Positions 3,598-51,364 of a stretch of 64,000 nt of DNA are shown one piece after another (the stretch's first letter is position 1; every line of letters begins with the position of its first letter). Made by a program: the position numbers and the translations under genes. The notes under the pieces are model-generated. The model saw only the letters and a list, made by a program, of their open reading frames with translations. It ran no database searches and was not told the origin of the DNA. Location: contig OZ244806.1 in the NCBI GenBank assembly GCA_965220075.1, forward strand, positions 2,519,925-2,583,924, written 5' to 3'. Source of the stretch: Chloroflexota bacterium. GTDB lineage: Bacteria; Chloroflexota; UBA11872.

Positions 3598-3737
3598 CGG
3601 TTGCCGACATCGTACGTCCGCACCAGCGGCACAGGCCAGCTTCCACGCGCCGCCGGGCGCGTGCGGCCGCTCGGCCGCACGGTGACCGGCTAGACTCGGC
3701 GCGCAGGTCAGTTGGGCCAGCGAGAGAGGCTGCAAGC

Positions 3738-5102
3738 ATGAACCGCAACGCGGCGCCAAGCACCGCGCTCCCCAGAACCGATGAATATCTGGCCCCCTCA
3801 TCCGAGACGGCGCGCCTCCACGCGCGCGCAAGCCGCGTGATGGTGGGAGGCACCTCGCGGATCCACTACTTCTTCGAGCCGTACCCCATCTATGCGCGGT
3901 CCGGAAAAGGCGCGTACGTGACCGACGTGGACGGAACCGAGCGGGTGGACTTCCTATTCAACATGACCACCCTCATCCACGGGCATGCGGACGCGGCGAT
4001 CAATCGAGCGCTGCGCGAACAACTGGACCAGGGCGCCTCCTTCTCCGAACCGGAAGAGTCGGAGGTCCGGCTGGCCGAGCTTATCGCCCAGCGGGTGGCG
4101 TCGGTGGAAAAGATTCGCTTCGCGAACTCCGGCACGGAGGCGGTGATGCTGGCGTTGAAGCTGGCGCGCGCGCACACCGGCCGAAGCCGCATAGCCAAAT
4201 TCGAGGGGTTCTACCACGGCTACTACGACCACGTGCAGGTGAGCTACGCCTCGCGGCCGGAAGTTTGGGGTCCGCCGGAGGCGCCCGCGAGCGTGGCCAG
4301 CTCCGGCGGTCTGGCGGAGTCGGTGGAGCGGGAAGTGGTGGTTTTGCCGTTCAACGACCGCGCAAGCGTCGAGCGCCTGTTCGAAGAGCACGGCCACACG
4401 CTGGCCGCGCTGGTGGTCGACCCGCTCTCGAATCGCGGCGGGTTTCCGAAGCCGGCGCCCGGGTTCTTCGATTTCCTGCGGCGGTTGACCCGGGCTCACG
4501 GAGTGGTGCTCGTCTTCGACGAAGTCATCAGCTTTCGACTCGGTTACCACGGCGCGCAGGGCCGCTACGGAGGCGCTCCGGACCTCACGGCATTCGGGAA
4601 GATCATTGGCGGCGGCCTGCCCGTGGGCGCGGTCGGCGGACGGAGCGAGATCATGGCGTTGCTCGATCCCACCGACGGTCCGCCGGAGATCGCCTCGGGC
4701 GGCACTTTCAGCGGAAACCCACTGAGCATGACCGCGGGTCTGGCCGCCATGCAGCGCATGACGCCCCCGCTGTACGAGCGCCTGGACGTACTGGGCGAGC
4801 GGCTGCGGCGCGAGTCCGACGCGGTCTTCAGCCGCGCGGGGATTGCGGCGCAACTGAGCGGAGACGGCTCGCTCTTCCGCATAGTCGCGGGCGATGCGCC
4901 GATCAGGCGCTACCGCGACCTTCGCGGCGATCCCGCGGCGGCCGCCTGGCTAGGCCGTCTGCACCGCGAGTTGCTGGCCAGCGGCATCATCGTCGCTAGG
5001 GAGGGCTTGGGCTGTCTGGCAACGGTTATGGGCGATGCCGAGGTCGACCGTTTTCTCGAAGGCCTGGAGACGGCCGTGCGGAGCGCCGGCAGTCCCGGCT
5101 AG
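3738..5102 (+). CDS. Class-III aminotransferase (glutamate-1-semialdehyde 2,1-aminomutase-like, PLP-dependent)
   Basis: 454 aa. Motifs match the GSA-aminomutase/omega-aminotransferase fold: HGHADAAINRALREQLDQG, VVLVFDEVISFRLGYHGAQ, and a GKIIGGGLPVGAVGG lysine-containing PLP loop. Confidence 0.9.
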   Translation: MNRNAAPSTALPRTDEYLAPSSETARLHARASRVMVGGTSRIHYFFEPYPIYARSGKGAYVTDVDGTERVDFLFNMTTLIHGHADAAINRALREQLDQGASFSEPEESEVRLAELIAQRVASVEKIRFANSGTEAVMLALKLARAHTGRSRIAKFEGFYHGYYDHVQVSYASRPEVWGPPEAPASVASSGGLAESVEREVVVLPFNDRASVERLFEEHGHTLAALVVDPLSNRGGFPKPAPGFFDFLRRLTRAHGVVLVFDEVISFRLGYHGAQGRYGGAPDLTAFGKIIGGGLPVGAVGGRSEIMALLDPTDGPPEIASGGTFSGNPLSMTAGLAAMQRMTPPLYERLDVLGERLRRESDAVFSRAGIAAQLSGDGSLFRIVAGDAPIRRYRDLRGDPAAAAWLGRLHRELLASGIIVAREGLGCLATVMGDAEVDRFLEGLETAVRSAGSPG

Positions 5103-5108
5103 CGGGAC

Positions 5109-5471
5109 CTACTCCCACTTCTCGAGGATGAACTCGCAGCCGAGGCCGTAGGCGCGCGACTCGTTCATCAGCAGGGCCAGGTCGGGAAACTCAATGATCC
5201 CCCAGCCGTCGTTCAAGGCGTCGAGAACCGTCTTGTAGGGCCATTCATCGGGATCCGTCGGACCTTCGTCGATCTCTCCCTGGCGGACTAGCGACATTCC
5301 GATCACGGGTGAATCGAGGTTCGTCTTCTGGGCCTGTAGGTATAGGAGGCTCTGGCGTCGGGACGAACCTTCATCGAGCGCAGCGAGAACGCCTTGCAAA
5401 CTGGTCTCCGCGAGGTTGCCCGCCCGGAGGTCCTCGATGCACTTCCGCACTTGCCGCCTGACGTTTTCCAT
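5109..5471 (-). CDS. hypothetical protein (120 aa)
   Basis: Clean ORF lying convergent with the aminotransferase. Codon usage is consistent with neighbours. No recognisable domain. Confidence 0.45.
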   Translation of the reverse strand: MENVRRQVRKCIEDLRAGNLAETSLQGVLAALDEGSSRRQSLLYLQAQKTNLDSPVIGMSLVRQGEIDEGPTDPDEWPYKTVLDALNDGWGIIEFPDLALLMNESRAYGLGCEFILEKWE

Positions 5472-14614: not shown

Positions 14615-14686
14615 CTTCGCACCTCCAACGCTGCAACCTCACCCACCATGCGCAGTATGTCCGGAGAGACGCCCGGTGGCCCGTCG

Positions 14687-14716
14687 GGTGGCCCGACCTT
14701 CAGGTCGGGCCACCGG
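14687..14716. repeat. REP-like palindromic element, copy 1 (GGTGGCCCGACC-TTCA-GGTCGGGCCACC)
   Basis: Perfect 12-bp inverted repeat around TTCA, in the AKR/higB intergenic space. Near-identical copies occur at 16922-16972 and 17788-17817. Confidence 0.8.
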
Positions 14717-14723
14717 GTGAATT

Positions 14724-14747
14724 GTAACCTGAGCGGTAACAGGTTAC
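14724..14747. promoter_or_regulatory. Palindrome GTAACCTG-N8-CAGGTTAC immediately upstream of higB start (candidate HigA operator)
   Basis: Perfect 8-bp inverted repeat that ends 10 nt before the higB ATG. TA operons are typically autoregulated through such palindromes. Confidence 0.4.
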
Positions 14748-14757
14748 ACTTGCGCGC

Positions 14758-15036
14758 ATGATCCTTGGTTTCCGTCACAGGGGGCTGCGACGGCTGTACG
14801 AGAAGGGGGACCGGCGGCGCATCCCGCCCGAGTATGTCGCGAAGGTTGAGCGCATCCTGGCTCGGCTCGATGTGGCGGCAGAGCCGCGGAATATGGACAT
14901 GCCGGGTTACAGACTGCATTCGTTGAGCGGTGATCTCGAGGGCTTCTGGTCGGTGAGCGTATCCGGTAACTGGCGGCTGATCTTCCGTTTTGACGCAGGT
15001 AACGTCCGCGACGTAGACCTGATCGACTATCACTAG
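14758..15036 (+). CDS. higB: Type II toxin HigB (RelE/ParE superfamily, 'plasmid maintenance system killer')
   Basis: 92 aa. RRLYEKGD...[13 protein letters not shown]...[32 protein letters not shown]...VDLIDYH matches the HigB family. It is followed 14 nt later by an XRE-type antitoxin. Confidence 0.85.
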
Positions 15037-15049
15037 AGGGGAGAAGAGG

Positions 15050-15343
15050 ATGTCCATGAAGAATCCACCTCATCCGGGGCTATCCGTTCGTCACGACTGC
15101 CTGGAGCCACTTGGCCTGAGCGTAACGGAGGCGGCACGAAGGCTGGGGGTGAGCCGCAAGCAGCTATCAGGGATCGTGAACGGTCATTCGGGAATCTCTC
15201 CAGAGATGGCGATCCGCCTCGACAAGGCGTTCGGAGGCGGCGCGACCACCTGGTACCAGATGCAGGCGGCATATGACCTGGCACAGGCGGCCAACAAGGC
15301 CGACAGCATCGATGTCGACCGCATTGAGCTTTCAGTAAGGTAA
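15050..15343 (+). CDS. higA: Antitoxin HigA (XRE-family HTH, addiction-module antidote)
   Basis: 97 aa. [40 protein letters not shown] is the HigA-type HTH. The toxin-first gene order is characteristic of higBA. Confidence 0.85.
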
Positions 15344-15588
15344 CCGCTTTGCACCAGGCGCAGTTGAGCAGTCGGCGGCCAGGGCGTTCATGTAGGCGGG
15401 CTTCGGTTATGCATCTAGGGAATCCATGCCGCTCGAGCGGCTGCCGCACCTCCCAGCCTTCCCAACCGGCTTGCTTGAGCCCGCCGAGCATGCGCGCCAG
15501 GTCCGGCGTGGGCCCGTATTCGAGAGTGTTGTAGGCGAGTCTTAGTGCCATTGCTGGTTTCCAGCGCTATCGCGGGGCATCTGACCTG

Positions 15589-16701
15589 CTACGCGTGGAG
15601 GATGAGCTGGGCGGTCACGTCGGTGAGGCGCCGGAGCTCGTCGTGCGGCATCCGTTCGGCGACGGAGTGCACGTCGTGGTAGCCGACCGCCAGAATCGCG
15701 GTCGCAATGCCCTTTTCGTTGAAGTTCTGGGCATCGCTTCCACCGTGCGTAGAGATGTGACGGGGCTCGAGGCCGGCGGCGGCAATGGCGGTGTCGGCGA
15801 GCCGTATAGCCGGGTGATCGTCGTCAAATCGGGTGACCTTGAACCGGCCCCTTTGCGTATAGTCGACGCGGCCGCCAAACGCGGCCGCGGCATCCTCGCA
15901 GGCCCGGCGCATGGCGGCCATCTGCCGTTCGAGGGCCTCCTGGTCCAGGCTTCGCGCCTGACCCACGAGCTTGACCTCCGGGGGCACGATGTTGGCCGCC
16001 TGGCCGCCTGACACGACGCCGACGTTGGCGACCGTCACGTCATCGACCCGGCCCAGCGGCATGTTGTCCACCGCGCGCGCTTGCATGGCAATGGCGTTGA
16101 TCCCGGTCTCCGGCGCGATGCCGGCGTGCGCGGCCTTCCCGTGGAAGATTGCTTCGAAGCCGTAGGAGGCGGCCTGGCGCGTGACGAGATCTCCAACGGG
16201 GCCGCCGGCATCCAGGACGAAGGCCACGCGCGCGTCGATATCGTTCGGATCAAAGGCGTCGGCGCCGAATTGCCCGACGTCCTCGCCCACCGTGAAGACC
16301 AGCTCGATCGGCCCGTGATCCACCCCCGCGTCATGGACGGCGAGGACAGCCTCGACGATGGCGGCCACGCCGGCCTTGTCGTCCGCCCCCAGCACGCTGG
16401 AGCCGTCGGAGTAGACGCCGTCCACCTTGACGACCGGCCGCATGCCGGGCGTGGGCTGCACCGTGTCCATGTGGGCATTGAGCATGATTGGCAGCGTCTG
16501 CTTGCCCTTGGCCGGCCACTTGCCGATGAGATTGCCAATCTCGTCGCGCGTAAAGACCACCCCGATGTCCTCCAGCAGCGGCTGAATGATCGCCACCACG
16601 CGGCCCTCGTTGCCCCAGTAGCTATCGACGCTGAGGATGTCGACGAAGGTCTTGAGCAACCGGTCGTGGTTGACGGCGACGGGGACGGCTGGGGTTGTCA
16701 T
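15589..16701 (-). CDS. M20-family metallopeptidase (peptidase T/tripeptidase-like)
   Basis: About 370 aa from ATG 16701. NAHMDTV, GADDKAGVAAIVEAV and HGKAAHAGIAPE...G are the metal-binding and catalytic motifs of the M20/ArgE/PepT family. Confidence 0.85.
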   Translation of the reverse strand: MTTPAVPVAVNHDRLLKTFVDILSVDSYWGNEGRVVAIIQPLLEDIGVVFTRDEIGNLIGKWPAKGKQTLPIMLNAHMDTVQPTPGMRPVVKVDGVYSDGSSVLGADDKAGVAAIVEAVLAVHDAGVDHGPIELVFTVGEDVGQFGADAFDPNDIDARVAFVLDAGGPVGDLVTRQAASYGFEAIFHGKAAHAGIAPETGINAIAMQARAVDNMPLGRVDDVTVANVGVVSGGQAANIVPPEVKLVGQARSLDQEALERQMAAMRRACEDAAAAFGGRVDYTQRGRFKVTRFDDDHPAIRLADTAIAAAGLEPRHISTHGGSDAQNFNEKGIATAILAVGYHDVHSVAERMPHDELRRLTDVTAQLILHA

Positions 16702-16921
16702 CGTGAAGATCGTCTCCAGGCGGCGGCGCACGATAGCGGGCCGCGCTGCTTGGCACCGGACAGGCTACAGCGTCCTTATCGTACGGTCGTCATCCGCAGC
16801 CACCGCAAACGCCGGTGCGAGACCGCTGGCGGGTTGTGCCGCCCCAACGTCCATCAGCCGCGCGGCGCTCGCGAGCCGCCGTGCGCTACGCGCTTCCCAC
16901 GGACAGCTTGCAATACGCGCG

Positions 16922-16972
16922 CGAACGCGGCCCGGTGCCCCGACCTTCAGGTCGGGATTGAGCCCGTGGTCG
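16922..16972. repeat. REP-like palindromic element, copy 2 (interrupted variant)
   Basis: CCCGACCTTCAGGTCGGG hairpin followed by GTGGTCGGGCCACCGG, lying between the M20 peptidase and doc. Confidence 0.7.
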
Positions 16973-17057
16973 GGCCACCGGACCTCAGGAAGTTTCGGCA
17001 GAGCGGACCTGTCCGGCGCATCGCTTTCCCTGCAAAGGAAACGGCGTTCGGTCAAGG

Positions 17058-17447
17058 CTACTTTGTAAACGGAAGAGATTTGACATTTTCCTCGAGCCAC
17101 TCGTGCAGCTCAGCGAATCGAAACGAACCGGTCGCAAACAGGCGCATGATGAAGGCGTGGGCCTCAGCGCCGTCGCAGTCGATGAAGCGGCCGTTCAGGC
17201 GCAGGAAGACGTCGGTGGCGGCGAAGGCCGCCCGCTTGTTGCCATCCACGAAGGGATGGTTCACGGCCAGGCTCTCCATGAGCGCGGCCGCTTCCTGAAT
17301 GAGTCCCTCGTAGTAGCCAAGCTGCGGGCGCATGAGGGCGGATTCCAGCGCGCCGGCGTCGCGCAGGCCCGCCGCGCCGCCGAACTCGCGGATCAGCTGG
17401 GCGTGCATGACCACAACCTCCTCGAGCGTAGGGAAGTCGTGAGTCAC
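17058..17447 (-). CDS. doc: Type II toxin Doc (Fic/Doc family, death-on-curing)
   Basis: 129 aa with the Fic/Doc motif HPFVDGNKRAAF. It overlaps the upstream antitoxin gene by 4 nt. Confidence 0.9.
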   Translation of the reverse strand: MTHDFPTLEEVVVMHAQLIREFGGAAGLRDAGALESALMRPQLGYYEGLIQEAAALMESLAVNHPFVDGNKRAAFAATDVFLRLNGRFIDCDGAEAHAFIMRLFATGSFRFAELHEWLEENVKSLPFTK

Positions 17448-17674
17448 TCAGCGAGCAACTCCATCAGGCGGCGGTTTACCTCGACGCTGGCCTGGTAGTG
17501 GGCCATCACCTCGGGGCGGACCCTCCCGCTCGCTTTGCCTTCGATGTACGCCCGCATGGCGTCTTCCAGCACCGCCTGGAAGTGACGGCCGTCCTCGCGG
17601 GCGATCTCGCGCATTGCCGTCAGCAACTCCGGGGCGGCCTGGCTGGAGAACTTCTCGCGCGACGCAACCATCAC
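17444..17674 (-). CDS. phd: Antitoxin for Doc (Phd/ribbon-helix-helix-type)
   Basis: 76 aa small acidic/basic protein immediately upstream of doc and translationally coupled to it. This is the canonical phd-doc arrangement. Confidence 0.75.
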   Translation of the reverse strand: MMVASREKFSSQAAPELLTAMREIAREDGRHFQAVLEDAMRAYIEGKASGRVRPEVMAHYQASVEVNRRLMELLAE

Positions 17675-17787
17675 TCAATCTCCTCAAAGGCGTCTTTGAG
17701 TGTGGAGCACTGCGGCGGCGTGGTCAAGAAACAGCTTGACGGAGATGGACAGCCGCGGGGTCAGGTCACCAGCCCCAGGTTTTGCCC

Positions 17788-17817
17788 GGTGGCCCGACCT
17801 TCAGGTTGGGCCACCGG
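17788..17817. repeat. REP-like palindromic element, copy 3
   Basis: GGTGGCCCGACCTTCAGGTTGGGCCACCGG, lying between phd and the sarcosine-oxidase-like gene. Confidence 0.8.
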
Positions 17818-17891
17818 GCGTTGCGGCGGCTTGGGCTGATCCGGGTTCACTGACGGCTCTTGGCTTATGCTGCGGCAGGTTCTTGCTGGAT

Positions 17892-23731: not shown

Positions 23732-24018
23732 GACCGCCCTCCAAGCGGGAGGACCCAGGCGTCTTATCGCCTGGAAATGCCAGCGTCCATATTAGTGGAG
23801 ACGCGGCCGCTCCGGTCAACGAGCCTTCCAGCGGCCCGCGACGACGGGCGCGAAGGCGCCCTCCGCAACGTCACGCTTCGCATCCAGGGCATGGCCGGGC
23901 GTGCGTCCGGGTCGGCCCATGGCTAGCGGGTACAGCCGGGTGACCCGCGCTCACGTTGACACTCGGAAAGCCCCCTCTCTACAGTCGAGGCGCTTGCGAA
24001 TCGCGCGCGTGGCACGCC

Positions 24019-25023
24019 ATGTCTGAGGAGACCGCCGGCCATCGGATTCTGATCACGGACATCGCCTGGCCGAGCACGGCGCCGGAGCGCGAGGTGCTGG
24101 CCGAGCTCGACGCGGAGGTCGTCGAATCCGACAGCCCCGACGAGGACCGCCTGGTCGAGCTGGCGCAGGACGTGACCGGCATCCTGGCGTGCTTTGCCAA
24201 GGTCACCGAGCCGGTGATCGCGGCCTCGCCCCGCCTGCGGGTGGTCGGACGCACCGGCGTGGGCACGGACAACATCGACGTGGACGCCTGCACGCGGCGC
24301 GGCATTCCCGTGACCTACGTGCCCGACTACGCCATCGAGGAAGTGGCCGACCACGCGATGGCGCTGCTGATGGCGTTTTCCCGCAAAATCGTGGCGCGGG
24401 ACCGGCTCACCAAGGCCGGTCGCTGGGAGACCAAGCCCGCGCGCCCCATCCACCGGCTGCGCGGACGCACGCTGGGGATCTTGGGCTATGGCCGCATCGG
24501 CCACGCGCTGGCGCTGCGCGCGATTCCGCATGGGTTCAAGATCCTGGTGTTCGACCCGTACATCACGGCCGACCGCGTGGCGGACATCGGGGCCGAGCTG
24601 GTGAGCAAGGAGCGGTTGCTGGCCGAATCGGACGCGATCTCGGTGCACGCCCCGCTCACACCCGAGACGCACCACGTCATCGGCGAAGCCGAGCTGCGCG
24701 CGATGAAGCCGGAGGCCTGTCTGATAAACACCGCGCGCGGACCGCTGGTGGACGAATACGCGCTGGCGCGGGCGCTGTCCGAAGGCTGGATCGCGGGCGC
24801 CGGCATCGACGTGCTGGAAGCCGAGCCGCCGCCGGAGGGCCACCCGCTCCTCGCGGAGCCGAACGCCATCGTCACGCCGCACGCCGCCTTCATGTCCGAG
24901 GAGTCGGTGCTCGAGCTCGAGCGCCGCGCCGCATTGGCCGTCGTCCGCGTCCTCCAAGGCCGCATGCCGGAGTTCATCTGGAACCGCGAAGTGCTGGACC
25001 AGGTGAGCCTGGCGAAGGACTAG
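24019..25023 (+). CDS. D-isomer-specific 2-hydroxyacid dehydrogenase (PGDH/GyaR-like), NAD-binding
   Basis: From ATG 24019. GILGYGRIGHALALRA (GxGxxG), catalytic RGP...NTARG...D...E...H arrangement and VTPHAAF motif. Confidence 0.9.
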   Translation: MSEETAGHRILITDIAWPSTAPEREVLAELDAEVVESDSPDEDRLVELAQDVTGILACFAKVTEPVIAASPRLRVVGRTGVGTDNIDVDACTRRGIPVTYVPDYAIEEVADHAMALLMAFSRKIVARDRLTKAGRWETKPARPIHRLRGRTLGILGYGRIGHALALRAIPHGFKILVFDPYITADRVADIGAELVSKERLLAESDAISVHAPLTPETHHVIGEAELRAMKPEACLINTARGPLVDEYALARALSEGWIAGAGIDVLEAEPPPEGHPLLAEPNAIVTPHAAFMSEESVLELERRAALAVVRVLQGRMPEFIWNREVLDQVSLAKD

Positions 25024-25184
25024 CGGCGCTATCGGGCCGACGGCGGGATAAACCGCAGCGGCGTCGGGGCGCAGCGCCAGCCCCTCGGCAGGTGGCTCAT
25101 CGAGAACATGCCACGCGGGGCTGAGCTCGAAATACCCGACCGCCGTTCAAACCGTACGATCCCGTTCAGCGACGCACACGACGA

Positions 25185-25421
25185 GTGAGCCGCTATCTCC
25201 TCCATGCCAACGGAGTCTCGGAGACAATCCGCGGCGCTCCGCACCCCGGTGTCGTCACGTTCCTTGCCGAGCACGAGGATCTTTGGCTGTCGTCGATCGT
25301 GATCGATGAGCTGGAATACGGCGTGCGGCTCTACCGAGGACTCGGCGTCTTCATGCTGCCTGCTCTAGAGAGCAGGGCGGCTGGGATTCAGCTGGTTCGG
25401 TCGAGGTCTTGCTCAGGTTGA
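25185..25421 (+). pseudogene. VapC (PIN-domain toxin) N-terminal relic
   Basis: LLHANGVSETIRGAPHPGVVTFLAEHEDLWLSSIVIDELEYGVRLYRGLG aligns with the VapC/FitB block LLDTNVVSELxRxxPxPxVxxWL....LxLSxITxxELxYGV. The catalytic Asp is replaced (HAN for DTN) and the C-terminal half is missing. Confidence 0.5.
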
Positions 25422-25486
25422 GCGATTCGTCAATCGGACTCTCAAGAGATGTATGACTATGCTCAATTGCAGTTCTGAACCTGCCA

Positions 25487-27163
25487 TTATACTGGCTTAT
25501 TACCGCCATATTCTCGCAGGTTAGTGAAAGGCTCTACCACAGGATGAGGCCTAGGAGGCAGCATTACAATAACCCTTTGTCGTGCTCGGGAAAGTGCCAC
25601 GTTTAGCAACCGGGACGTCTTCATGAAGGGCTCTCGCTCAGATCCGAAGTAGTCATCGGTCCGGAACACATGAATGACGGTGTCAGCCTCGCGCCCCTTT
25701 GTTTGGTGGTAGTTCATCAACTTCACCGTACCGCGCTCGGAGTAGTCCAAATCGATGAGGGCCTCGACGCGGCTGCGCTCGACGATCTCACACAACTGCC
25801 GCACGGCTTCCTCTGATACGGGAATTTCCCGAAGCGGCCGCAAGAGGCGCCTGAAGTGGTTAGCAGCTCTATGCCACGGACGATTGCCAGCCCTGATGCC
25901 GAGACCCTCCCATGACTCTATGGCGACCTCTGCCAATTCCCCCATCGTGCCATCTACAGCTGCAGCAAGGGCACCCTCGAGCTGCTGTAGCGATTCCTTC
26001 AAGAGACCTGGAAGACTAACCCTGCCTGCGAGCGCCCTAGCCATCTCGGGGACTCTGCGCTGCCTCGTGGCTGCGGTCAGAAACAGCCCAAGCGATTCGC
26101 GGAACTCTTCACTAGTCGTTATCCCAAGTGCAAACGCACATTGTGCTGCCATCGATGCCATCGCCTCTGCGTGAGCCTCTGGTATACCCACGAGAACGCA
26201 GTCGATACCCGCAGCATCTAGTTGCTCGGCCAACTCGGCTACCGCAGCATTGGAGTGGGCGAAGATACCGACATCACGGGAATGTTGTCTCCGCGCGTCC
26301 CTGATAATCTCACCAAGTAGGCCCGAATGGTCGTCAGGGCTCACATCGAAATGGATGACGAGGCGGCCACTAGTCAAAGCTTCAACGACCGCCTCATGGT
26401 TAAACAGGCGCTGGCGTATGGCCTCGGCAACAGCTGGAATTGCTCCTGATGGGTCGCGATGAGATCGCGGGGAGAGCTCAATCTCCTTGTCCACCCACTC
26501 CCGCAATTGGCGGAATCTCTCTGGCGAAACGCCCTCGATGAATGTATAGATCATTTGGTTTTCGTCACCCAGCAGGAGCAGCCTGCGCGACGTGATCGTC
26601 TGAAGAAGCTGCCACTGCTCTGCGCTTGTATCCTGGGCCTCGTCACAGATCACTAGACCCCAGCGGGTCGCAAGGAGCCGCCTTACACGCTCGCTACCAT
26701 TGACAATCGCCATCGCACCAGGAATTAAGTCAGCGTATCGGAGCTTGGTACGGTCCTGACCCAGCAGCTTGCTGCGCGCCTCCGACTGAAGTGAGGGCAG
26801 AGCCAGCCCGTAGCCCGCGTACCTTCCATACCCTTTCAACACCCGATAGGCGAGTCCATGGAATGTGAGAACTTCAACGCGATCCGCACAACCCACGAGT
26901 ACTCCCGGCGAGCGGCTCATGATCTGGGTTACCGCCGAGCGCGAAAATGTCAGGAACAGGACTCTCGGGGACGGATTGTCTTCTGAGGTCTCAAGAAAAG
27001 CGCGCGCAGCCCACAGCGCCGTCGTAGTCTTACCAGTTCCCGGTCCGCCCAGAACAAGCGTTCTGTCATTCGAGTGGAGGATCGCATTCACGACCTCGCG
27101 CTGCCTACAGTCAAGGTCATCAATTCGCATAGTCGTCCTAGCCGGATTAAGTACCGGCTGCAA
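25487..27163 (-). CDS. gajB: UvrD/Rep-like superfamily-1 helicase (GajB-like)
   Basis: 558 aa. Walker A LVLGGPGTGKTTT, motif II VICDEAQD, C-terminal VALSRARQRVIV. Overlaps the upstream OLD-like gene by 17 nt (operon). The region is lower GC than flanks. Confidence 0.8.
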   Translation of the reverse strand: MQPVLNPARTTMRIDDLDCRQREVVNAILHSNDRTLVLGGPGTGKTTTALWAARAFLETSEDNPSPRVLFLTFSRSAVTQIMSRSPGVLVGCADRVEVLTFHGLAYRVLKGYGRYAGYGLALPSLQSEARSKLLGQDRTKLRYADLIPGAMAIVNGSERVRRLLATRWGLVICDEAQDTSAEQWQLLQTITSRRLLLLGDENQMIYTFIEGVSPERFRQLREWVDKEIELSPRSHRDPSGAIPAVAEAIRQRLFNHEAVVEALTSGRLVIHFDVSPDDHSGLLGEIIRDARRQHSRDVGIFAHSNAAVAELAEQLDAAGIDCVLVGIPEAHAEAMASMAAQCAFALGITTSEEFRESLGLFLTAATRQRRVPEMARALAGRVSLPGLLKESLQQLEGALAAAVDGTMGELAEVAIESWEGLGIRAGNRPWHRAANHFRRLLRPLREIPVSEEAVRQLCEIVERSRVEALIDLDYSERGTVKLMNYHQTKGREADTVIHVFRTDDYFGSEREPFMKTSRLLNVALSRARQRVIVMLPPRPHPVVEPFTNLREYGGNKPV

Positions 27164-28880
27164 CCGCGACCGCGTCCTCTAGCAGCTGGACCGCCACGGC
27201 AGGAAGATTGTCTGACGGCAGTGAGTCAATGAACGGTCCATGCAATGAGTTGCTCTTTATGAAACGAATCGCCGTTTCAGTGATCTCCGATCTGGTGAGT
27301 ACGTCGAGGTTCCGAGGCTCAGCTAAGCCTGCGGCCGCTGCAACGTCCTTGAGCGCCTGAATTAGTATTCCTTCGGGCACGCCATTCACAATGGCCGCCT
27401 CAATGGCGAAGTCGTCTGGAAGCCGAACAACCGCATCTGCTGAATTGCCGTGGGTTTGCAAGTACTGCTGCACCTCTCGACGAGTGTCACCGTCGACCAC
27501 CGCGACTGCACGTAGACCAATGTCTCGGGCCGCATCCGCCAGCTTCAAGACGGCGGCATAGCCACCGGAGCCTCCCGATCCCGCGTTGACAATCGAGACT
27601 CCCCGTGTCGCGGGAAGCGCCAAGCCCTGCTCCGCAGACATCCGCAACGCGAGGTTGTGCAGTGCGGCAAAATCATTAGGTCCTTCCACAATGACTACTG
27701 AACGGTAGCTGAGAGCTGGAAGCAGATTGCGATGCCAGTGCTTGGCTGCGACATTCTCAGCCTTGGTCGTTGGCCGCCTGCCTTGGCGGACAAATCGCTC
27801 TCCATTCCCGTCTCTCCCTAGCCTGACGACCTCCTGGGGGTCGAATACCTCCGCGACAGCTGACACCCTAGTGGTCACCCACGCCTGTCCCGCCAACCTT
27901 CGGATGACGGCTGTCATGTGTGCAGATGATGCAGCATCTAGCCCGTCGCCGAGATCGTCGACGGCTAGGACTGGACCGGCGCCTGACGAGAGGGCCAGTG
28001 CCTCAGCTATGCGAAATAGCGAGGCGGCAGTTGACCCGCGCCGCCACGCCGGAAGGCTGCCTGCACCGTCACCAAGGTCAAGGGACGGACCAAGCGAGCG
28101 GAGAAGCCCACTTGGCGATCCATCTTCAGGCGCAAACTGGAAGAGTTGCGATACGTCTGTTGTCGAGAGTCCGAGTAGGTCCCTGAGCGGGGTGACTACA
28201 TCTTCAAGGGCCTCATTGATTTGGTCTGAACCGGTGAACTGCCCAGCGGCCTGAACGACTGCCTGCACGTACTGGGCAATCGCCGTCGCAAAGTCGTCGC
28301 CTCCAGCCCTGTCGATCACGCGCCGGAATGCGCCGCGAGGCCCAAGGTCGAGGATCCGTCCTTCACTCCAGCGCAGACGATTGAATCCCAACCTCTCAAC
28401 ATCCCGGCGTCTGATGTGGAGGAACGAATCGGAGGTTGGATCAGATTCCTTTGGATAGAAGATCCACTCTTCGCACCGCTCCTCCTCAAGAATCCACCTG
28501 GCCCAGTACTCCAGCCGCAGAACCCATTCAAATCGATCTTGGTCGACTTCTTCTATGTCCTCGATTTCTGGAAGGAGGCGGCCCTCACACCTGTCCCACA
28601 GTTCCAAATGGTCGAGGAAGTCCTGTTCCAGCTGCTCGCCAAGTCCACCGAGGGTGACCCCGATCCGAATGGGCCGGGTCGTGATTCTGTTATGGAAGTC
28701 AATTTCAGTGGTAGTCCCGGTGGCCCTGGCGTCGGAATCAAGTACGCGTGCCAGCGCTTCAATAAGGTCAGTCCTCTCCGCACCCGGTTCGCCCATGACC
28801 ACAACGTGACCTCTGGGCGCGACCCGGAAGTCGGAGAAGCCTCGAAATCGCCTTATGTGGAGTTCTTTAACATGCATCAA
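27147..28880 (-). CDS. gajA: OLD-family ABC-type ATPase with C-terminal TOPRIM nuclease domain (GajA-like; P-loop degenerate)
   Basis: 577 aa. N-terminus IRRFRGFSDFRVAPRGHVVVMGEPGAERTDLIEAL has the layout of OLD/GajA ATPases, but the Walker A reads GEPGAERT instead of GxxxxGK[ST]. The C-terminus has TOPRIM glutamate and DxD motifs (VVIVEGPNDFAALHNL, AVAVVDGDTRRE). Confidence 0.8.
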   Translation of the reverse strand: MMHVKELHIRRFRGFSDFRVAPRGHVVVMGEPGAERTDLIEALARVLDSDARATGTTTEIDFHNRITTRPIRIGVTLGGLGEQLEQDFLDHLELWDRCEGRLLPEIEDIEEVDQDRFEWVLRLEYWARWILEEERCEEWIFYPKESDPTSDSFLHIRRRDVERLGFNRLRWSEGRILDLGPRGAFRRVIDRAGGDDFATAIAQYVQAVVQAAGQFTGSDQINEALEDVVTPLRDLLGLSTTDVSQLFQFAPEDGSPSGLLRSLGPSLDLGDGAGSLPAWRRGSTAASLFRIAEALALSSGAGPVLAVDDLGDGLDAASSAHMTAVIRRLAGQAWVTTRVSAVAEVFDPQEVVRLGRDGNGERFVRQGRRPTTKAENVAAKHWHRNLLPALSYRSVVIVEGPNDFAALHNLALRMSAEQGLALPATRGVSIVNAGSGGSGGYAAVLKLADAARDIGLRAVAVVDGDTRREVQQYLQTHGNSADAVVRLPDDFAIEAAIVNGVPEGILIQALKDVAAAAGLAEPRNLDVLTRSEITETAIRFIKSNSLHGPFIDSLPSDNLPAVAVQLLEDAVAVAAGT

Positions 28881-29224
28881 TGGGCATTGGCAGCTTCGTG
28901 GTCTGAGAGATTGCTAACTTGAGGCTGCGCCTCATGAGCCTATCTTGAGAACGAAGTGCAAGCAACCCGCTGGCCAGATGCGAAGCTGGCCTCGTCGTCG
29001 CAGAAGGCGGCCCCTATGCGACGCGTGACAGATTGCCCTAGCGGTCCCGGACCAGCAGGACTTCGCTGAGGCCCCGGGCGATGCCGAGTCGGTCGCCGCT
29101 CGACACATTTCCCAGTTGGGCTGTGTCTTGGCCACCAGGGGCACGGGCGGCGAAGCAAATCATAGGGCAACCACGAGAGTCGCCGTTACGGGTGCGTCAG
29201 GGCAGGGGCTGAACCGCAGCGGCG

Positions 29225-29563
29225 CTAGACACAGCCGGTGGCGACGGCGAGGGCGCGGCAGACCTGGCGCATCTTGGTTGGGCTGAGGGTGCCGACGTAG
29301 CGGTGCAGCCGGCGTTGCTCGACGGTTTGCACGTGGTCGAGGTTGACGGCGGAGTCGTGCCGCAGGCCCTCGTCCGCGCCGACGACGACCTCGCTCGGCA
29401 GGCCGCGGATAGTGGACGTGATCGGCGCAACCATCGCTGTGGGCAGCAGCGGCAACACTTCCTGGCGCGTGAGGACGACGACCGGGCGCCGCTTGTCGGG
29501 CCGCTCGAAGCCGTAGTGCCAGATCGCGCCGCGGCGCGGCCCGGCGTCTAGTCCTCGGGCCAT
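29225..29563 (-). CDS. mazF: Type II toxin, PemK/MazF-family endoribonuclease
   Basis: 112 aa. GAIWHYGFERPDKRRPVVVLTRQEV...VAPITSTIRGLPSEVVV...SAVNLDHVQTVEQRRL matches MazF/PemK. Overlaps the upstream antitoxin gene by 16 nt. Confidence 0.85.
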   Translation of the reverse strand: MARGLDAGPRRGAIWHYGFERPDKRRPVVVLTRQEVLPLLPTAMVAPITSTIRGLPSEVVVGADEGLRHDSAVNLDHVQTVEQRRLHRYVGTLSPTKMRQVCRALAVATGCV

Positions 29564-29781
29564 ACACCTGCCTCAGCCCATCCCTCGAACTCGGCGTCAA
29601 GCCCGCCGGACGGGCGATAGCCCGCGCGGTAACGGAGGGCGATGCCCTCGGCGTCCTTGCGGGCCAGGTAGGCGGCCGCCGCCTCACGCAGGACGGCCGA
29701 GCGGTCCCGCTCCCGCACCGCCGGATGCGCGTCGAGCCGCGCGAGCAGCGCCTCGTCGAATGTCACCTGTATGGGCTTCAT
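29548..29781 (-). CDS. Ribbon-helix-helix antitoxin (MazE/CopG-like) paired with the MazF-like toxin
   Basis: 77 aa from ATG 29781. MKPIQVTFDEALLARLDAH... is an RHH N-terminus. The longer ORF in the track is rejected because it extends through an AT-rich promoter. Confidence 0.75.
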   Translation of the reverse strand: MKPIQVTFDEALLARLDAHPAVRERDRSAVLREAAAAYLARKDAEGIALRYRAGYRPSGGLDAEFEGWAEAGVWPED

Positions 29782-29787
29782 AGCTAT

Positions 29788-29811
29788 AAGAATACTATAT
29801 ATCTTATACAC
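29788..29811. promoter_or_regulatory. AT-rich palindrome TATAAGA-N10-TCTTATA just upstream of the antitoxin start (candidate TA operator/promoter)
   Basis: Inverted repeat within the only strongly AT-rich 30 bp of the region, 7 nt upstream of the antitoxin ATG. Confidence 0.35.
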
Positions 29812-29974
29812 ATCACCGCCCAGTAGCTGCGCATCGGCACTTGCCGCCCCTGCAGACATTCCGAACGCAAGTGAGGAATCTAGAGCGGCCGCGGCACGTT
29901 CCCTGCTCCTTAGATTCCTCGCGTTGCTCGGAATGACGAGATGGGCGATCCGAGCGTACGGTGGACGCTCCCAG

Positions 29975-30012
29975 GCTGCACGCAGCCTGGGCCACCGGAC
30001 CTGGCTTTTATT
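29975..30012 (+). terminator. REP-type hairpin (CCCAGGCTGCACGCAGCCTGGG) followed by T-tract CTTTTATTTTT; intrinsic-terminator-like
   Basis: Perfect 10-bp stem with a 2-nt loop, followed by a U-rich run on the plus strand. Shares the ...GGGCCACCGG tail with the REP family. Related hairpins lie at 50247-50275 and 50411-50440. Confidence 0.4.
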
Positions 30013-30104
30013 TTTGAGTCGAAACAAACGCCCGAACACATATAAAAACTCCCGCCCCAAAGGACTGGACCTCTGTTGGGCGCACCCACTGTGCGCTGCT
30101 CGTT

Positions 30105-30283
30105 TGCCTGTCATTCCGGCCTTGCGCCGGAATCCAGGCCCGGGCCGCCGGGCACAGTCTGTGTAGGGGCGCCCCTCGTGGGCACCCTGGGGTACCGGCA
30201 GCGAATCCGGGGACAGGGCAACCACAAGGGTTGCCCCTACGCGAATCCCACCTCTGGGGCTACCACGAGGGTTACCCCCCATT
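30105..30283. repeat. Structured repeat/MITE-like segment abutting the IS481 left end (hairpin CATTCCGGC-CTTGC-GCCGGAATG, then CCAGGCCC core)
   Basis: Shares the hairpin plus GGAATCCAGGCCC core with repeats at 33083-33180 and 47281-47381. Additional internal inverted motifs CCCCTCGTGGG / CCACGAGGG. Confidence 0.45.
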
Positions 30284-31536
30284 TGTGAATTGTCCAGACC
30301 GGGGACATGGTGAACACATCTAGGCGGACTCGCGCAGGTCGAGAGAGCCCAGGTGGTCGGTCATGAAGATGGCGTCCCAGCAGCCGTCGGTGGGCCTGGG
30401 CCGAAACGCGACCGGCTGGCCGCGCAACGCCTTGGGCAGGCGCAGTTGGCGGCCTTGGAAGGAGACCCAGCCGCCCTGCTGGACCTTGCGCACTTGGTCG
30501 GCGGGCTGGTAGGGCAGCGGCGGCAGGTGCGCCGGGTAGGGCCTGGGGCTGATCTGGTAGCGGCTGGCCGGTACGGCCAGACCCAGGCTCTCGTGCGGGC
30601 GCACGTGGTTGTACTGGTGCCGCCAGGCAGCAAAGGCAGCCTGCCAGGCGGCCAGATCGGGCTGTGGCGGCTGGCCCGCCAGTTCGCGCTTGAGGGTGCC
30701 GTGGAAGCGCTCGTCCTTGCCCAGCGTCTGCGGGTGGTAGGGCCGGCTGTGGCTGACCGCCACGCCCAGGCGCCGCAGCCAGACGGTCAGCGGGGTGTAG
30801 GGATGGGCCGGATGGTTGCCCCAGGGACTGCCGTTGTCGACCAGCCGGCGGTCGGGCAGCCCGTAGCGCTGGAAGGTGGCGATCAGGTGGGCGCGCACCG
30901 TGGCGGTGCGCTGATTGGGGCAGGCCACCAGCCCGAGCGCGTAGCGCGAATGGTCATCGAGGATGGTGAGGGGATGGCAGCGGCCGGGGCCGCAGGGCCA
31001 GCCGGCTTTGAAGTCCATCTGCCAGAGGGCGTTGGGGTAGGGCTGCTCGAACCGCTGGTAGGCGCGCGCCTGGCCCGCCCCCTGGGCGGGGTCCAGGGCC
31101 CCATGGCGACGCAGGATGGCGCTGATGGTGGAGACCGCCGGCAGCGGCTGGAGGCCCTGCCGGGCCAGCAAAACGCGCAGCTTGCGCGCGCCCCAGGCGG
31201 GATGCTGCGCACGCAAGGCCAGCACCGCCTGCTCCATCGCAGGGGCCGTCTGCCCCGGACTGTGGTGCGGTCGCCGCGCGCGCTCCGCCAGCCCCGCCGG
31301 GCCTTCCGCCGCATAGCGCTGCAACCACTTGTAGGCCGTGGCGGGCGCAATCCCGAAGCGCCGGCAGAGCGCCCGCCGGTTCGCCCCAGGCTGTCTCGCC
31401 AGCGCCACAAACTCGGCCCGTTGCTCCCTCATCGACCGGTCCTCAAACGGCACGTCATCAGGCCCCCGTCCTCTGCGAATGTGTTCACTATGTCCCCGAA
31501 CATGTGTTCATGATGTCCCCGGTCTGCACAGAATCA
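30284..31536 (-). mobile_element. IS481-family insertion sequence (about 1.25 kb) with terminal inverted repeats
   Basis: IR-L 30284-30319 TGTGAATTGTCCAGACCGGGGACATGGTGAACACAT. IR-R 31502-31536 reverse complement TGATTCTGTGCAGACCGGGGACATCATGAACACAT (23/25 identical in the core). Encloses a single DDE integrase-core transposase. Confidence 0.8.
30320..31453 (-). CDS. IS481-family transposase (rve/integrase core domain, DDE)
   Basis: 377 aa. N-terminal HTH (GIAPATAYKWLQRY) and integrase core with HSRPYHPQTLGKDERFHGTLKRE (the third-carboxylate region typical of IS481/IS3-type rve domains). Confidence 0.9.
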   Translation of the reverse strand: MPFEDRSMREQRAEFVALARQPGANRRALCRRFGIAPATAYKWLQRYAAEGPAGLAERARRPHHSPGQTAPAMEQAVLALRAQHPAWGARKLRVLLARQGLQPLPAVSTISAILRRHGALDPAQGAGQARAYQRFEQPYPNALWQMDFKAGWPCGPGRCHPLTILDDHSRYALGLVACPNQRTATVRAHLIATFQRYGLPDRRLVDNGSPWGNHPAHPYTPLTVWLRRLGVAVSHSRPYHPQTLGKDERFHGTLKRELAGQPPQPDLAAWQAAFAAWRHQYNHVRPHESLGLAVPASRYQISPRPYPAHLPPLPYQPADQVRKVQQGGWVSFQGRQLRLPKALRGQPVAFRPRPTDGCWDAIFMTDHLGSLDLRESA

Positions 31537-47260: not shown

Positions 47261-47381
47261 GAGACCTTTGCGTAACCCCTCGTCATTCCCGCGCACGCGG
47301 GAATCTAGGCCCACCCAACCTGGAACCGCGCATGGTTCCGCCCGGACATCCTTGGCCTGACCGGGTTATGCAAACATCTCT
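47261..47381. mobile_element. MITE-like element (121 bp) with IS5-type terminal inverted repeats, between the two GHL10 paralogs
   Basis: Left TIR GAGACCTTTGCGTAA (47261-47275), right TIR TTATGCAAACATCTCT (47366-47381). Internal hairpin CATTCCCGCG-CAC-GCGGGAATC and the core AGGCCCACCCAACCTGGAAC shared with 33083-33180. Confidence 0.6.
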
Positions 47382-49387: not shown

Positions 49388-50134
49388 CTAAGGAGCCAGT
49401 TCTTCGAGTCTAATCCATGCACCCGGATAGCGACCCCTTAGCTCATAGAACATTTCTACGGTCCCATTGAAGAGACCTTCTTCAAGTTTGTGGTAAGCAA
49501 GCCAATTGTTTTCGTCATGAAGGTCGAATTCACCATATATCTTTTCCAAAGGCCGAAGCTGAAACAGCTCGTGCGTGAGGAACTTATTTCTGTATGTAAC
49601 AAATATCGACTCGAAATTGGTGGCCCCGAGCGACGTGTCCAATATCTCGTCAATTGGTTTGATGAGGCTCGACAGACCATGCTTCGCAAGGATTGGCCGC
49701 ACGTTAACATCTGATGGATACTTAGTGGAAGCGACAAAATAGTTGAAGCATATAGATCTCAATGCGTTCAGATAGAAGGATTGCTCTGGGCTGGCGTTTC
49801 CATTTGATTCAGTTGCGATCAATAGACCGGTATATCCATGTACAAAGCCAAACATGGAATGAAGCATAATCCCAAGTTCCACTCTGTCATTCTCTGACAT
49901 ATCGGAGGGCAGAAACTGCCGGCTCCATCGAGCGTCCAAGTTAAACCATTGATGATCTGGTATTGGCTCAGGAGGCCCGACGGTAAGGTCTTCATTGATC
50001 TCTGCTAGCAATCCGGACTTGCACTTGAGACATTTGTATACAAGGCTTAAACCAAATCGGCCGCGGCTCTCAAAGCTACAATCGGTATCGTTTATACGAC
50101 CAACATTGTCGCACTTTTTGCAAGTGATATTCAT
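49388..50134 (-). CDS. hypothetical protein with N-terminal CxxC...CxxC zinc-ribbon, AT-rich (about 42% GC; foreign)
   Basis: About 248 aa from ATG 50134. MNITCKKCDNVGR...YKCLKCKSG zinc ribbon followed by an uncharacterised domain. The upstream in-frame extension in the track runs into GC-rich REP hairpins and is rejected. Confidence 0.6.
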   Translation of the reverse strand: MNITCKKCDNVGRINDTDCSFESRGRFGLSLVYKCLKCKSGLLAEINEDLTVGPPEPIPDHQWFNLDARWSRQFLPSDMSENDRVELGIMLHSMFGFVHGYTGLLIATESNGNASPEQSFYLNALRSICFNYFVASTKYPSDVNVRPILAKHGLSSLIKPIDEILDTSLGATNFESIFVTYRNKFLTHELFQLRPLEKIYGEFDLHDENNWLAYHKLEEGLFNGTVEMFYELRGRYPGAWIRLEELAP

Positions 50135-50246
50135 CGCCAATCTTGAGGATCCATGTCCTTCCTCTGCCAAGCACAGATTACCCTCCCTTTGAGATTGTAA
50201 GGGAGTGCACATTCGCCAGTCACGTTGTTCACCATTCAGGTGCGTG

Positions 50247-50275
50247 GCCGGTGGCCCAGGCTGCGTGCAGCCTGG
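50247..50275. repeat. REP-type hairpin GGCCCAGGCTGC-GTG-CAGCCTGGG; sister hairpin CCCACGCTGC-GTG-CAGCGTGGGCCACCG at 50411-50440
   Basis: Two near-identical 10-bp-stem hairpins 165 bp apart, related to the hairpin at 29975-30000 and sharing the GGTGGCCC/GGGCCACC flanks of the REP family. Confidence 0.6.
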
Positions 50276-50548
50276 GAAGAACAGTGTGGCTCCTTCGCTC
50301 GATACCGGCATGGACAGTCCCGATCCTACTCAGGGAGGACTGGTTCAACGCTTGGGTTGTCGGGTAGCCCGGTCGCGGCGACAGCCCCGCCTCACAGTCC
50401 CTGTCTTGAGGGAATCCCACGCTGCGTGCAGCGTGGGCCACCGAGCCATACACTGCACGAGTGCCTAATACTGTTAGGAATGCTCTGAAAAAGCCCGGTG
50501 GTTGCGGCAGGGCCTATGCTCACGAGCGACGGATAGCCGCTGAGGGCC

Positions 50549-50887
50549 ATGATGCCGCCGCAACGCTCATTTGCCGACGTGGAGTATGACGGACAGCCGC
50601 GCCAGACGCGGCGGGAGCGCTTTCTGCAGCGCATGGACGCGCTGATGCCGTGGGCGCGGCTCGAAGCGCGCATCCGGCCGGTCTACCCCACCGGCGAGCG
50701 CGGGTGGCTCCCCTACCCGCTGGCCCTGCTGCTGCGGCTTCACGGCGTGCAGGTGTTCTACAACCTCAGCGACCCGGCGATGGAAGACGCGCTCTATGAC
50801 AGCGCGGCGGTGCAGCGGTTCGTGGAGCTGACCGCGCGGGGGCCGCGGCCCGATGAGACGACGAGGCGCCGGTGTTCGGCGGGCTGA
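50549..50887 (+). pseudogene. IS5-family transposase N-terminal (DUF772) fragment
   Basis: SFADVEYDGQPRQTRRERFLQRMDALMPWARLEARIRPVYP...GWLPYPLALLLRLHGVQVFYNLSDPAMEDALYD matches the IS5 transposase N-terminal domain. No DDE domain follows. Confidence 0.6.
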
Positions 50888-51100
50888 GCGGCGACCGGCT
50901 CGCGCGGAGAATCAAGGCGGTGGCCCAGGCCGCCGGCCTGGGCGCGCACTTCAGCGGGCATAGCGGGCGCGTCGGCATGGCGCGCCGCATGGTGTCGCGG
51001 GGAGCGCCGCTCCCCGTGGTCGTGCGCCAGGGCCGATGGCAGCCTGCCACGGGCGCGGCGATGGTTCAGCGCTACACGCGCGCCAGGCTTCTCCCGCAGG
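50872..51100 (+). pseudogene. Tyrosine recombinase (phage integrase) C-terminal catalytic fragment
   Basis: HFSGHSGRVGMARRMVSRGAPLPVVVRQGRWQPATGAAMVQRYTRA carries the HxxR...Y catalytic-tail signature of tyrosine integrases. The N-terminal two-thirds are missing. Confidence 0.55.
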
Positions 51101-51148
51101 GCGCTGGAGCGCGTCCTCGTCTCGAACGGGGTTGCCTACCGGCACGTC

Positions 51149-51364
51149 GTGGAGTTGGGCAACGCGAGCCGGCATGACCCGGAGGACGCGCCGCTGAGGC
51201 TCGTCGACGAGCCGCGCGGCCTGTCGATCCTCCAGGCCGAGTTCGCGACCGGCCGCGTGGTGGCGATCATGTGCGCGTGCAGGGCCGGGGCGTCCTGCCA
51301 CCGCTCCCATATTTCGGCGCAGATGGTGTCACGGCTGACGGACCTGCAGGTGCTTCACCTCTAG
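51149..51364 (+). pseudogene. DUF488-family protein C-terminal fragment
   Basis: VVAIMCACRAGASCHRSHISAQMVSRL resembles the conserved C-x-E...CHR motif of DUF488. Too short to be intact. Confidence 0.4.

Follow-up and report, generated by a model that had tools for sequence, protein, structure and literature searches.

Palindromic repeats around higBA and phd-doc

The stretch of DNA considered here (the window) comprises 64,000 nucleotides of a Chloroflexota genome (contig OZ244806.1, positions 2,519,925 to 2,583,924) and contains three recognisable type II toxin-antitoxin modules, i.e. higBA, phd-doc and an RHH-mazF pair (29225-29781). Around the first two lie copies of a short hairpin repeat, here termed REP1, which an earlier sequence-only reading had likened to repetitive extragenic palindromic (REP) elements. 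Pfam searches confirmed the neighbouring genes as encoding an aldo-keto reductase, HigB, HigA (HTH_3), an M20 peptidase, Doc (Fic) and a DAO oxidoreductase; the 76-aa Phd-like protein had no match in Pfam. All three REP1 copies reported from the sequence are present (Table 1): copy 1 lies 42 nt 5' of the higB start, between this gene (+ strand) and the divergent aldo-keto reductase gene (- strand), copy 2 lies 77 nt 3' of doc and ~200 nt 5' of the M20 peptidase gene, and copy 3 lies 112 nt 5' of the phd start and 81 nt 5' of the start of the DAO gene. The further statement that every intergenic gap is occupied does not hold, as no copy separates higA from the M20 gene, a gap of 245 nt (15344-15588).

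The 25-nt REP1 unit opens with the 5' tail CCGGTGG, followed directly by a hairpin whose 7-bp stem (CCCGACC/GGTCGGG) closes a TTCA loop. Solo palindromes carry the tail on both sides, as in the 32-nt copy 1, CGGGTGGCCCGACC-TTCA-GGTCGGGCCACCGG, of which the 28-nt core has no mismatch. Copy 2 is a composite rather than a simple palindrome, in which a hairpin with a 7-bp stem is followed by 11 nt (ATTGAGCCCGT) and then by a second right arm with its tail. The oriented 25-mer CCGGTGGCCCGACCTTCAGGTCGGG has five matches in the window at up to three mismatches, against none in 100 shuffles, and the 10-mer GGGCCACCGG occurs nine times where 0.59 occurrences are expected. Spurious open reading frames (ORFs) over the repeats, pointed out in the sequence-only reading, do yield the peptide RWPDLKVGPP and also RWPDLQVGPP; at a related locus (L044, on a 2.71-Mb circular contig), a gene-calling pipeline placed a 273-aa ORF across the repeats.

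A second hairpin family noticed in the same reading, here REP2, was also found in three copies, two of them forming an inverted pair (Table 1). Its stem is CCCAGGCTGC/GCAGCCTGGG and its loop 2-4 nt, a pattern with a fixed 3-nt spacer giving no match in the window; the third copy has a compensated G>C / C>G change in the stem and the tail TCGGTGG. The pair is laid out like the REP1-bounded units described below, yet encloses no recognisable coding remnant, and a tblastn search with RAYT proteins (see below) found nothing at this position. Across the window and its relatives, both families follow one plan, i.e. CCGGTGG abutting a hairpin that begins CCC and ends GGG, and a search for this tail followed by a hairpin returned 20 sites, on two different stems, in the window and nine related loci. 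Stems range from 7 to 16 bp, and z-scores for folding as single-stranded DNA (ssDNA) lie between -3.7 and -6.8 for the three REP1 copies of the window, with weaker values (-1.8 to -2.7) for REP2 and for bare units with a 7-bp stem. All six REP1 and REP2 copies in the window are extragenic, in gaps between Pfam-supported genes, and an Rfam scan returned tRNAs only.

Table 1. Positions of REP1 and REP2 copies, and of a candidate operator, within the window
Feature	Position	Strand	Description
Partial tandem duplicate of REP1 tail (12 nt)	14673..14684	+	CCGGTGGCCCGT; precedes copy 1; also in sister strains L005 and L050
REP1 copy 1	14685..14716	.	solo: 7-bp stem around a TTCA loop, with the tail on one side and its complement on the other; ssDNA fold z = -4.7
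Candidate HigA operator	14723..14748	+	TGTAACCTG-N8-CAGGTTACA; 10 nt before higB, outside the repeat family
REP1 copy 2	16932..16981	-	CCGGTGG-CCCGACC / ACGGGCTCAAT-CCCGACC-TGAA-GGTCGGG-GCACCGG
REP1 copy 3	17786..17817	.	solo palindrome with one stem mismatch (GGTTGGG); fold z = -6.8
REP2 copy	29970..29998	-	CCGGTGG-CCCAGGCTGC-GT-GCAGCCTGGG; 189 nt 5' of the RHH-mazF module, within a hairpin-repeat mosaic
REP2 inverted pair	50248..50276 and 50416..50444	+ and -	tails outward, 139 nt enclosed

A transposase gene bounded by REP1 in related genomes

The gene for a REP-associated tyrosine transposase (RAYT), which the sequence-only reading had suggested looking for, is not in the window, but related metagenomic genomes, whose loci were fetched via toxin-antitoxin or RAYT proteins, hold such a gene between inverted REP1 termini. 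The element is 300-560 bp long, with REP1 as its inverted ends, tails outward, and the RAYT gene inside. At L044 two REP1 hairpins enclose an ORF of 83 aa, which scores 26.6 bits with Pfam Y1_Tnp and matches NF047646, the NCBIfam RAYT model (cutoff 80 bits), with E = 2e-11 over profile positions 3-68 of 146, compared with 3.2e-5 for the IS200 model. This unit recurs with unrelated flanks at L046, where it is frameshifted, and at L049, where it has a 12-nt deletion and is represented by its left end only (from position 694), the contig ending within it. A protein search with the 83-aa fragment alone gave no match; a profile built from three corrected RAYT fragments retrieved the protein P0143, on L051. 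Here two 301-bp units (3712-4012 and 4903-5203) are 90.7% identical to each other and have an identical internal deletion just past the codons of the HUH motif. Both L051 units, like those of L044 (7525-7861) and L046 (9567-9900), end in inverted REP1 copies that match perfectly over 27 nt and stand in unrelated flanking sequence, and no direct repeats flanking the L051 units were seen by eye.

The most complete picture of the protein comes from L054, where the RAYT gene is nearly full-length and is followed by REP1. Reconstructed over one stop codon and at least one frameshift, the product scores 116.7 bits against NF047646 (profile positions 2-145 of 146), and its best match among solved structures is Escherichia coli TnpA-REP (4ER8, E = 6.8e-9), with whose HUH and Tyr motifs the L054 sequences PDHVH and RYIDWNPV align. 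The contig has 1x read coverage, so the defects in this gene could be sequencing errors.

Copy 2 as a remnant of the element

When these sequences are aligned in register (alignment A5), their lengths run from ~560 bp at L054 through 337 bp at L044 and L046 and 301 bp in the two L051 units (A and B) to 51 bp in window copy 2 and 32 nt in the palindromes. Within copy 2, 36 nt (window 16939-16974) are identical to L051 3970-4005, and correspond to the PDH codons (part of the HUH motif), the GLN codons and the right-end hairpin of the RAYT unit. Since this exact junction is shared with L051, we regard copy 2 as a RAYT element that has lost its interior, likely by recombination between direct repeats of GCCCGACC, of which one belongs to the left arm and the other to the HUH codons. 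The solo palindromes would, by extension, be the last stage of this deletion series, and such a progression from RAYT element to 32-nt palindrome bears on how REPs arise from, or relate to, their transposases.

Strain differences at the repeats

Exact-protein look-ups identified two sister strains with the gene order of the window, L005 (ena:ERZ25072076 ctg245979, 3.25-Mb contig, ~97-98% identical) and L050 (ena:ERZ25067264 ctg836550, 2.70-Mb circular contig, ~99%). REP1 copy 1 is kept in both. The site of copy 2 exists as three alleles, i.e. the 51-nt composite of the window, a plain 32-nt hairpin in L005, and CCCGACCTTC-G-GAAGGTCGGG with an extra GTCGGG in L050, and the flanks differ too. 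Copy 3 is missing from both sisters. Where the window has 17757-17818, they carry ~220 nt that take in the 5' part of a small ORF situated upstream of phd, and of this ORF the window keeps just ~86 nt (17671-17756) at the 3' end. In the window strain alone, therefore, copy 3 was gained in an event coupled to a deletion, and this event truncated the small ORF. In the sisters the ORF (L005 9481-9738, L050 4756-4971) has a weak match to EcoEI_R_C (E = 2.8e-4), and could belong to the phd-doc locus as its third component.

REP1 marks the start of homology where higBA lies in a second genomic context. At L044 a HigB 97% identical to that of the window is encoded between luciferase-like and restriction-modification genes, and DNA homology extends from window 14687, i.e. 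2 nt inside copy 1, to 34 nt beyond the higA stop codon; L045-L047 present the same higBA pattern with another repeat upstream of REP1. At L056, higB is cut off by a deletion between two occurrences of the 8-nt repeat CCGGCGGC, the first within the REP1 tail and the second within higB codons; this deletion joins an upstream repeat cluster to the body of higB. Insertion of family-3 repeats (described below) into this gene was considered and is ruled out by the DNA, which shows the deletion between CCGGCGGC repeats. The earlier suggestion that these sites are insertion hotspots fits in a broad sense, as insertion and deletion junctions between strains and contexts fall on repeats. Around toxin-antitoxin genes, the repeats are the breakpoints of the differences between strains of 97-99% identity, in one case with truncation of a toxin gene.

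A more distant relative, at 87% identity, has no REP1 or REP2 in 19 kb and carries different genes between DAO and M20. Neither the 29 nt to the left of copy 3 nor the 50 nt to the right of copy 2 match any of the fetched sequences. Several contigs, from short-read or low-coverage assemblies, break at or near REP1: L002 ends at the equivalent of window 14691, and L048 and L049 start 29-41 nt before higB. Assemblers usually break at repeated or palindromic sequence.

Origin of the repeats and proposed mechanism

We conclude, with a probability of about 0.8, that the palindromes of the window are lineage-specific REP-type repeats, remnants of a RAYT element that serve as breakpoints between close strains. 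The REP-type or bacterial interspersed mosaic element (BIME)-type identity first proposed from the sequence thus gains support from the defective cognate RAYT in relatives, from the junction shared by copy 2 and from the coincidence of breakpoints with repeats. Selfish repeats of this kind are already known; what is new is a REP/RAYT family tailed with CCGGTGG in an uncultured high-GC lineage, which also explains the spurious ORFs called over the repeats. For this lineage, the nearest homologues with names hint weakly at Chloroflexota.

In the related genomes, two inverted REP1 units with outward tails bound the gene for the HUH/Y1 transposase, an arrangement known as a REPtron. In the mechanism we propose, the RAYT would, like E. 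coli TnpA-REP and the transposases of IS200/IS605, recognise the hairpin and its 5' tail on ssDNA, and would cut and rejoin there. The element may then decay via deletions between its repeated arms, presumably by slippage or recombination, until a 32-nt palindrome remains in which one hairpin stands for both termini, and all three copies in the window would be end states of this decay. Situated in variable spaces together with toxin-antitoxin cassettes, the repeats act as breakpoints for deletion, gain and reshuffling of cassettes between close strains.

A number of results weigh against this interpretation. All three REP1 copies of the window are inside 3.1 kb, the other 61 kb being without any, and the exact palindrome was found neither in 185,579 species-representative genomes (where the scan gave two unrelated single hairpins, the source species being masked or unrepresented) nor in Joint Genome Institute (JGI) metagenomes, nor did a scan of viral contigs return a match. 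Every RAYT copy recovered is truncated, frameshifted or interrupted by a stop codon, none being intact, and tblastn over the 64-kb window and over stretches of 20 kb and 17 kb from the sister strains detected no Y1 transposase or RAYT. Internal element sequence is present in copy 2 only, and the solo palindromes could be primary REPs. Outside the window, moreover, the co-occurrence of REP and toxin-antitoxin genes is biased because the loci were sampled by those proteins. Relaxing the pattern to RR/YY in the JGI metagenomes gave 38 matches, none with a TTCA or TGAA loop and most of them unrelated singletons, with a few flanks recurring across samples; the relaxation mainly caught hairpins with GGCC stems. 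Given the absence of the palindrome from the genome and metagenome collections, the family is therefore narrow and possibly low-copy, and low-copy repeat families have been reported for some RAYT groups (PMC5581495).

Relation to toxin-antitoxin modules and alternative explanations

Four of the five gaps in the window that hold REP1 or REP2 flank a toxin-antitoxin module (rough hypergeometric p ~1.5e-4 for 60 gaps, the events not being independent), the exception being the REP2 pair at 50248-50444, which is situated amid insertion-sequence and integrase debris. The link between REP and toxin-antitoxin modules is real within the window but is not obligatory. It is most simply explained if the two types of selfish DNA gather in the same variable spacers, where the repeats then provide breakpoints. 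A more active role, in which the RAYT element and its REP-bounded derivatives shuttle or remodel toxin-antitoxin cassettes and segments such as REP1-higBA are mobilised in trans by the RAYT, appears improbable to us; if true, the strong association would reflect a cargo-carrying, insertion sequence (IS)-like RAYT system and not co-residence in junk-tolerant spacers.

Less probable still is that the palindromes are functional parts of the modules, either as antitoxin operators or as hairpin insulators or terminators that prevent read-through into promoters. Copies 1 and 3 do flank higBA and phd-doc on their promoter side and form stable hairpins, REP1 accompanies higBA into its second genomic context, and REP1 is also found ~50 nt 5' of a PhdYeFM-ParE pair at L045 and L047. 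One and the same repeat, however, stands beside toxin-antitoxin modules of three unrelated families, bounds a transposase gene on either side and has no T-tract; in L005 and L050 phd-doc occupies the locus with copy 3 missing, and an 81% identical phd-doc at L055 is without any REP. Moreover, higBA has a palindrome of its own, TGTAACCTG-N8-CAGGTTACA, which is nearly invariant in seven loci from two genomic contexts and is the likely HigA operator. In the same seven loci ~7 of the 32 positions of the adjacent REP1 vary, with uncompensated stem mismatches and flipped loops accumulating; as the module's own palindrome is far better conserved, REP1 is not the operator, and we do not think that REP1 or REP2 are part of toxin-antitoxin regulation.

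We also considered whether the copies could be ordinary GC-rich hairpins resembling intrinsic terminators, alike through local duplication and belonging to no mobile family. Similar GGTGGCCCGGCC...GGCCGGGCCACC hairpins do turn up singly in many metagenome contigs that are GC-rich and unrelated, and copy 2 is suitably placed 3' of doc. Copies 1 and 3, in contrast, are poorly placed as terminators since they lie between divergently transcribed genes, and a terminator or mRNA-stabiliser role for these two, one of the functions the sequence-only reading had raised, is unlikely. None of the copies has a T-run or was picked up by a terminator scan, and identical 25-27-nt units with unrelated flanks bound a RAYT gene in several genomes, leaving this explanation highly improbable. 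The least probable account, that the repeats are recombination sites of a cassette-capturing system like integron attC, draws on the bracketing of phd-doc by repeats, the different genes held by the DAO-M20 interval in a relative and the standing of higBA and phd-doc as classic superintegron cassettes, but meets a palindrome without GTTRRRY / RYYYAAC core sites, cassettes in opposite orientations, higBA with no repeat on its right side, no integron integrase nearby (the sole tyrosine-recombinase match being a sub-threshold fragment, 50872-51177, 33 kb away) and an enzyme that is a Y1 HUH transposase.

Comparison with known systems

Compared with established REP/BIME and RAYT systems (E. coli TnpA-REP 4ER8, Pseudomonas REPIN-RAYT and the GTAG-tagged repeats of Stenotrophomonas), the present family shares a hairpin that is short, GC-rich and extragenic, the conserved tail abutting it on the 5' side, the use of one tail on several stem variants, a transposase gene between two inverted repeats, and a protein that fits the RAYT model over the IS200 model and aligns to 4ER8; the mosaic with other repeat families at window 29850-30290 resembles BIMEs. 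It differs in that the tail is CCGGTGG (7 nt) and not GTAG, that the solo form is a perfect 32-nt palindrome with a tail on both sides, and that copy number appears low. The usual RAYT is single-copy and vertically inherited (PMC5581495), whereas the unit described here is multi-copy and decaying, with two truncated copies and a shared deletion at L051, and in this respect is more IS-like or MITE-like (MITE, a miniature transposable element with inverted repeats).

With IS200/IS605 elements and their derivatives, i.e. palindrome-associated transposable elements (PATEs) and MITEs, the unit has in common a Y1 HUH transposase gene between subterminal hairpins, the lack of a flanking direct repeat by eye, and internally deleted forms that are themselves multi-copy. 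The termini found here are genuine inverted repeats with the same sequence read inward from either side, which the two ends of IS200/IS605 elements are not known to be. The unit differs further in having no tnpB and in the scores of the L054 reconstruction (36 bits with the IS200 model against 117 with the RAYT model). That REP and toxin-antitoxin modules may share hotspots has a precedent in the E. coli folA-apaH spacer, a variable intergenic region described in PMC3184786, citing Mine et al. (2009), as holding the ccdO157 toxin-antitoxin module in some strains and REP in others. Relative to that description, REP and module lie side by side in the window, and REP moves with higBA to a second context.

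Further hairpin families and mobile-element debris

A third hairpin family, GTCATTCC-stem-GGAATCYAG, occurs in the window at 29858-29879, 29914-29934, 30113-30133 and 47285-47304. At L056 (5567-6213), five hairpins of this family are arranged in two inverted groups around a small gene for a GIY-YIG nuclease, which suggests that the family is tied to the GIY-YIG protein and not to a RAYT. Hairpins of the classical REP type, tagged with GTAG, are present at window 30163-30187 and 30209-30240, and at L044 (6848-7369) inverted GTAGGGGCGGTTCGCGAACCGCCCC repeats flank a RAYT-like gene of 173 aa, whose NF047646 score of 68.5 bits falls short of the cutoff; together these are a second, separate REP/RAYT pair in the lineage. 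Window 29850-30290, between RHH-mazF and the IS481 transposase gene, mixes four hairpin-repeat families within 440 nt and resembles a BIME-type cluster.

This cluster is part of a larger segment (23824-31531) that is missing in L005, which has an IS there instead. The segment encodes an OLD-like TOPRIM protein (27147-28880) adjoining a UvrD-type helicase (25487-27163), together a Gabija-like pair, and also holds RHH-mazF (29225-29781) and an IS481-type transposase (30320-31453). In the higA-M20 gap, a short ORF (15427-15551) was considered as a sugar-isomerase remnant; this was rejected, since the ORF has no Pfam match and does not resemble the relatives' AP_endonuc_2 genes. Around the REP2 pair (49388-51177) lie a low-GC (~55%) ORF of 307 aa without a Pfam match, an IS5-like DUF772 fragment (50549-50887) and the C-terminal fragment of a tyrosine recombinase (50872-51177), and this region looks like mobile-element debris.

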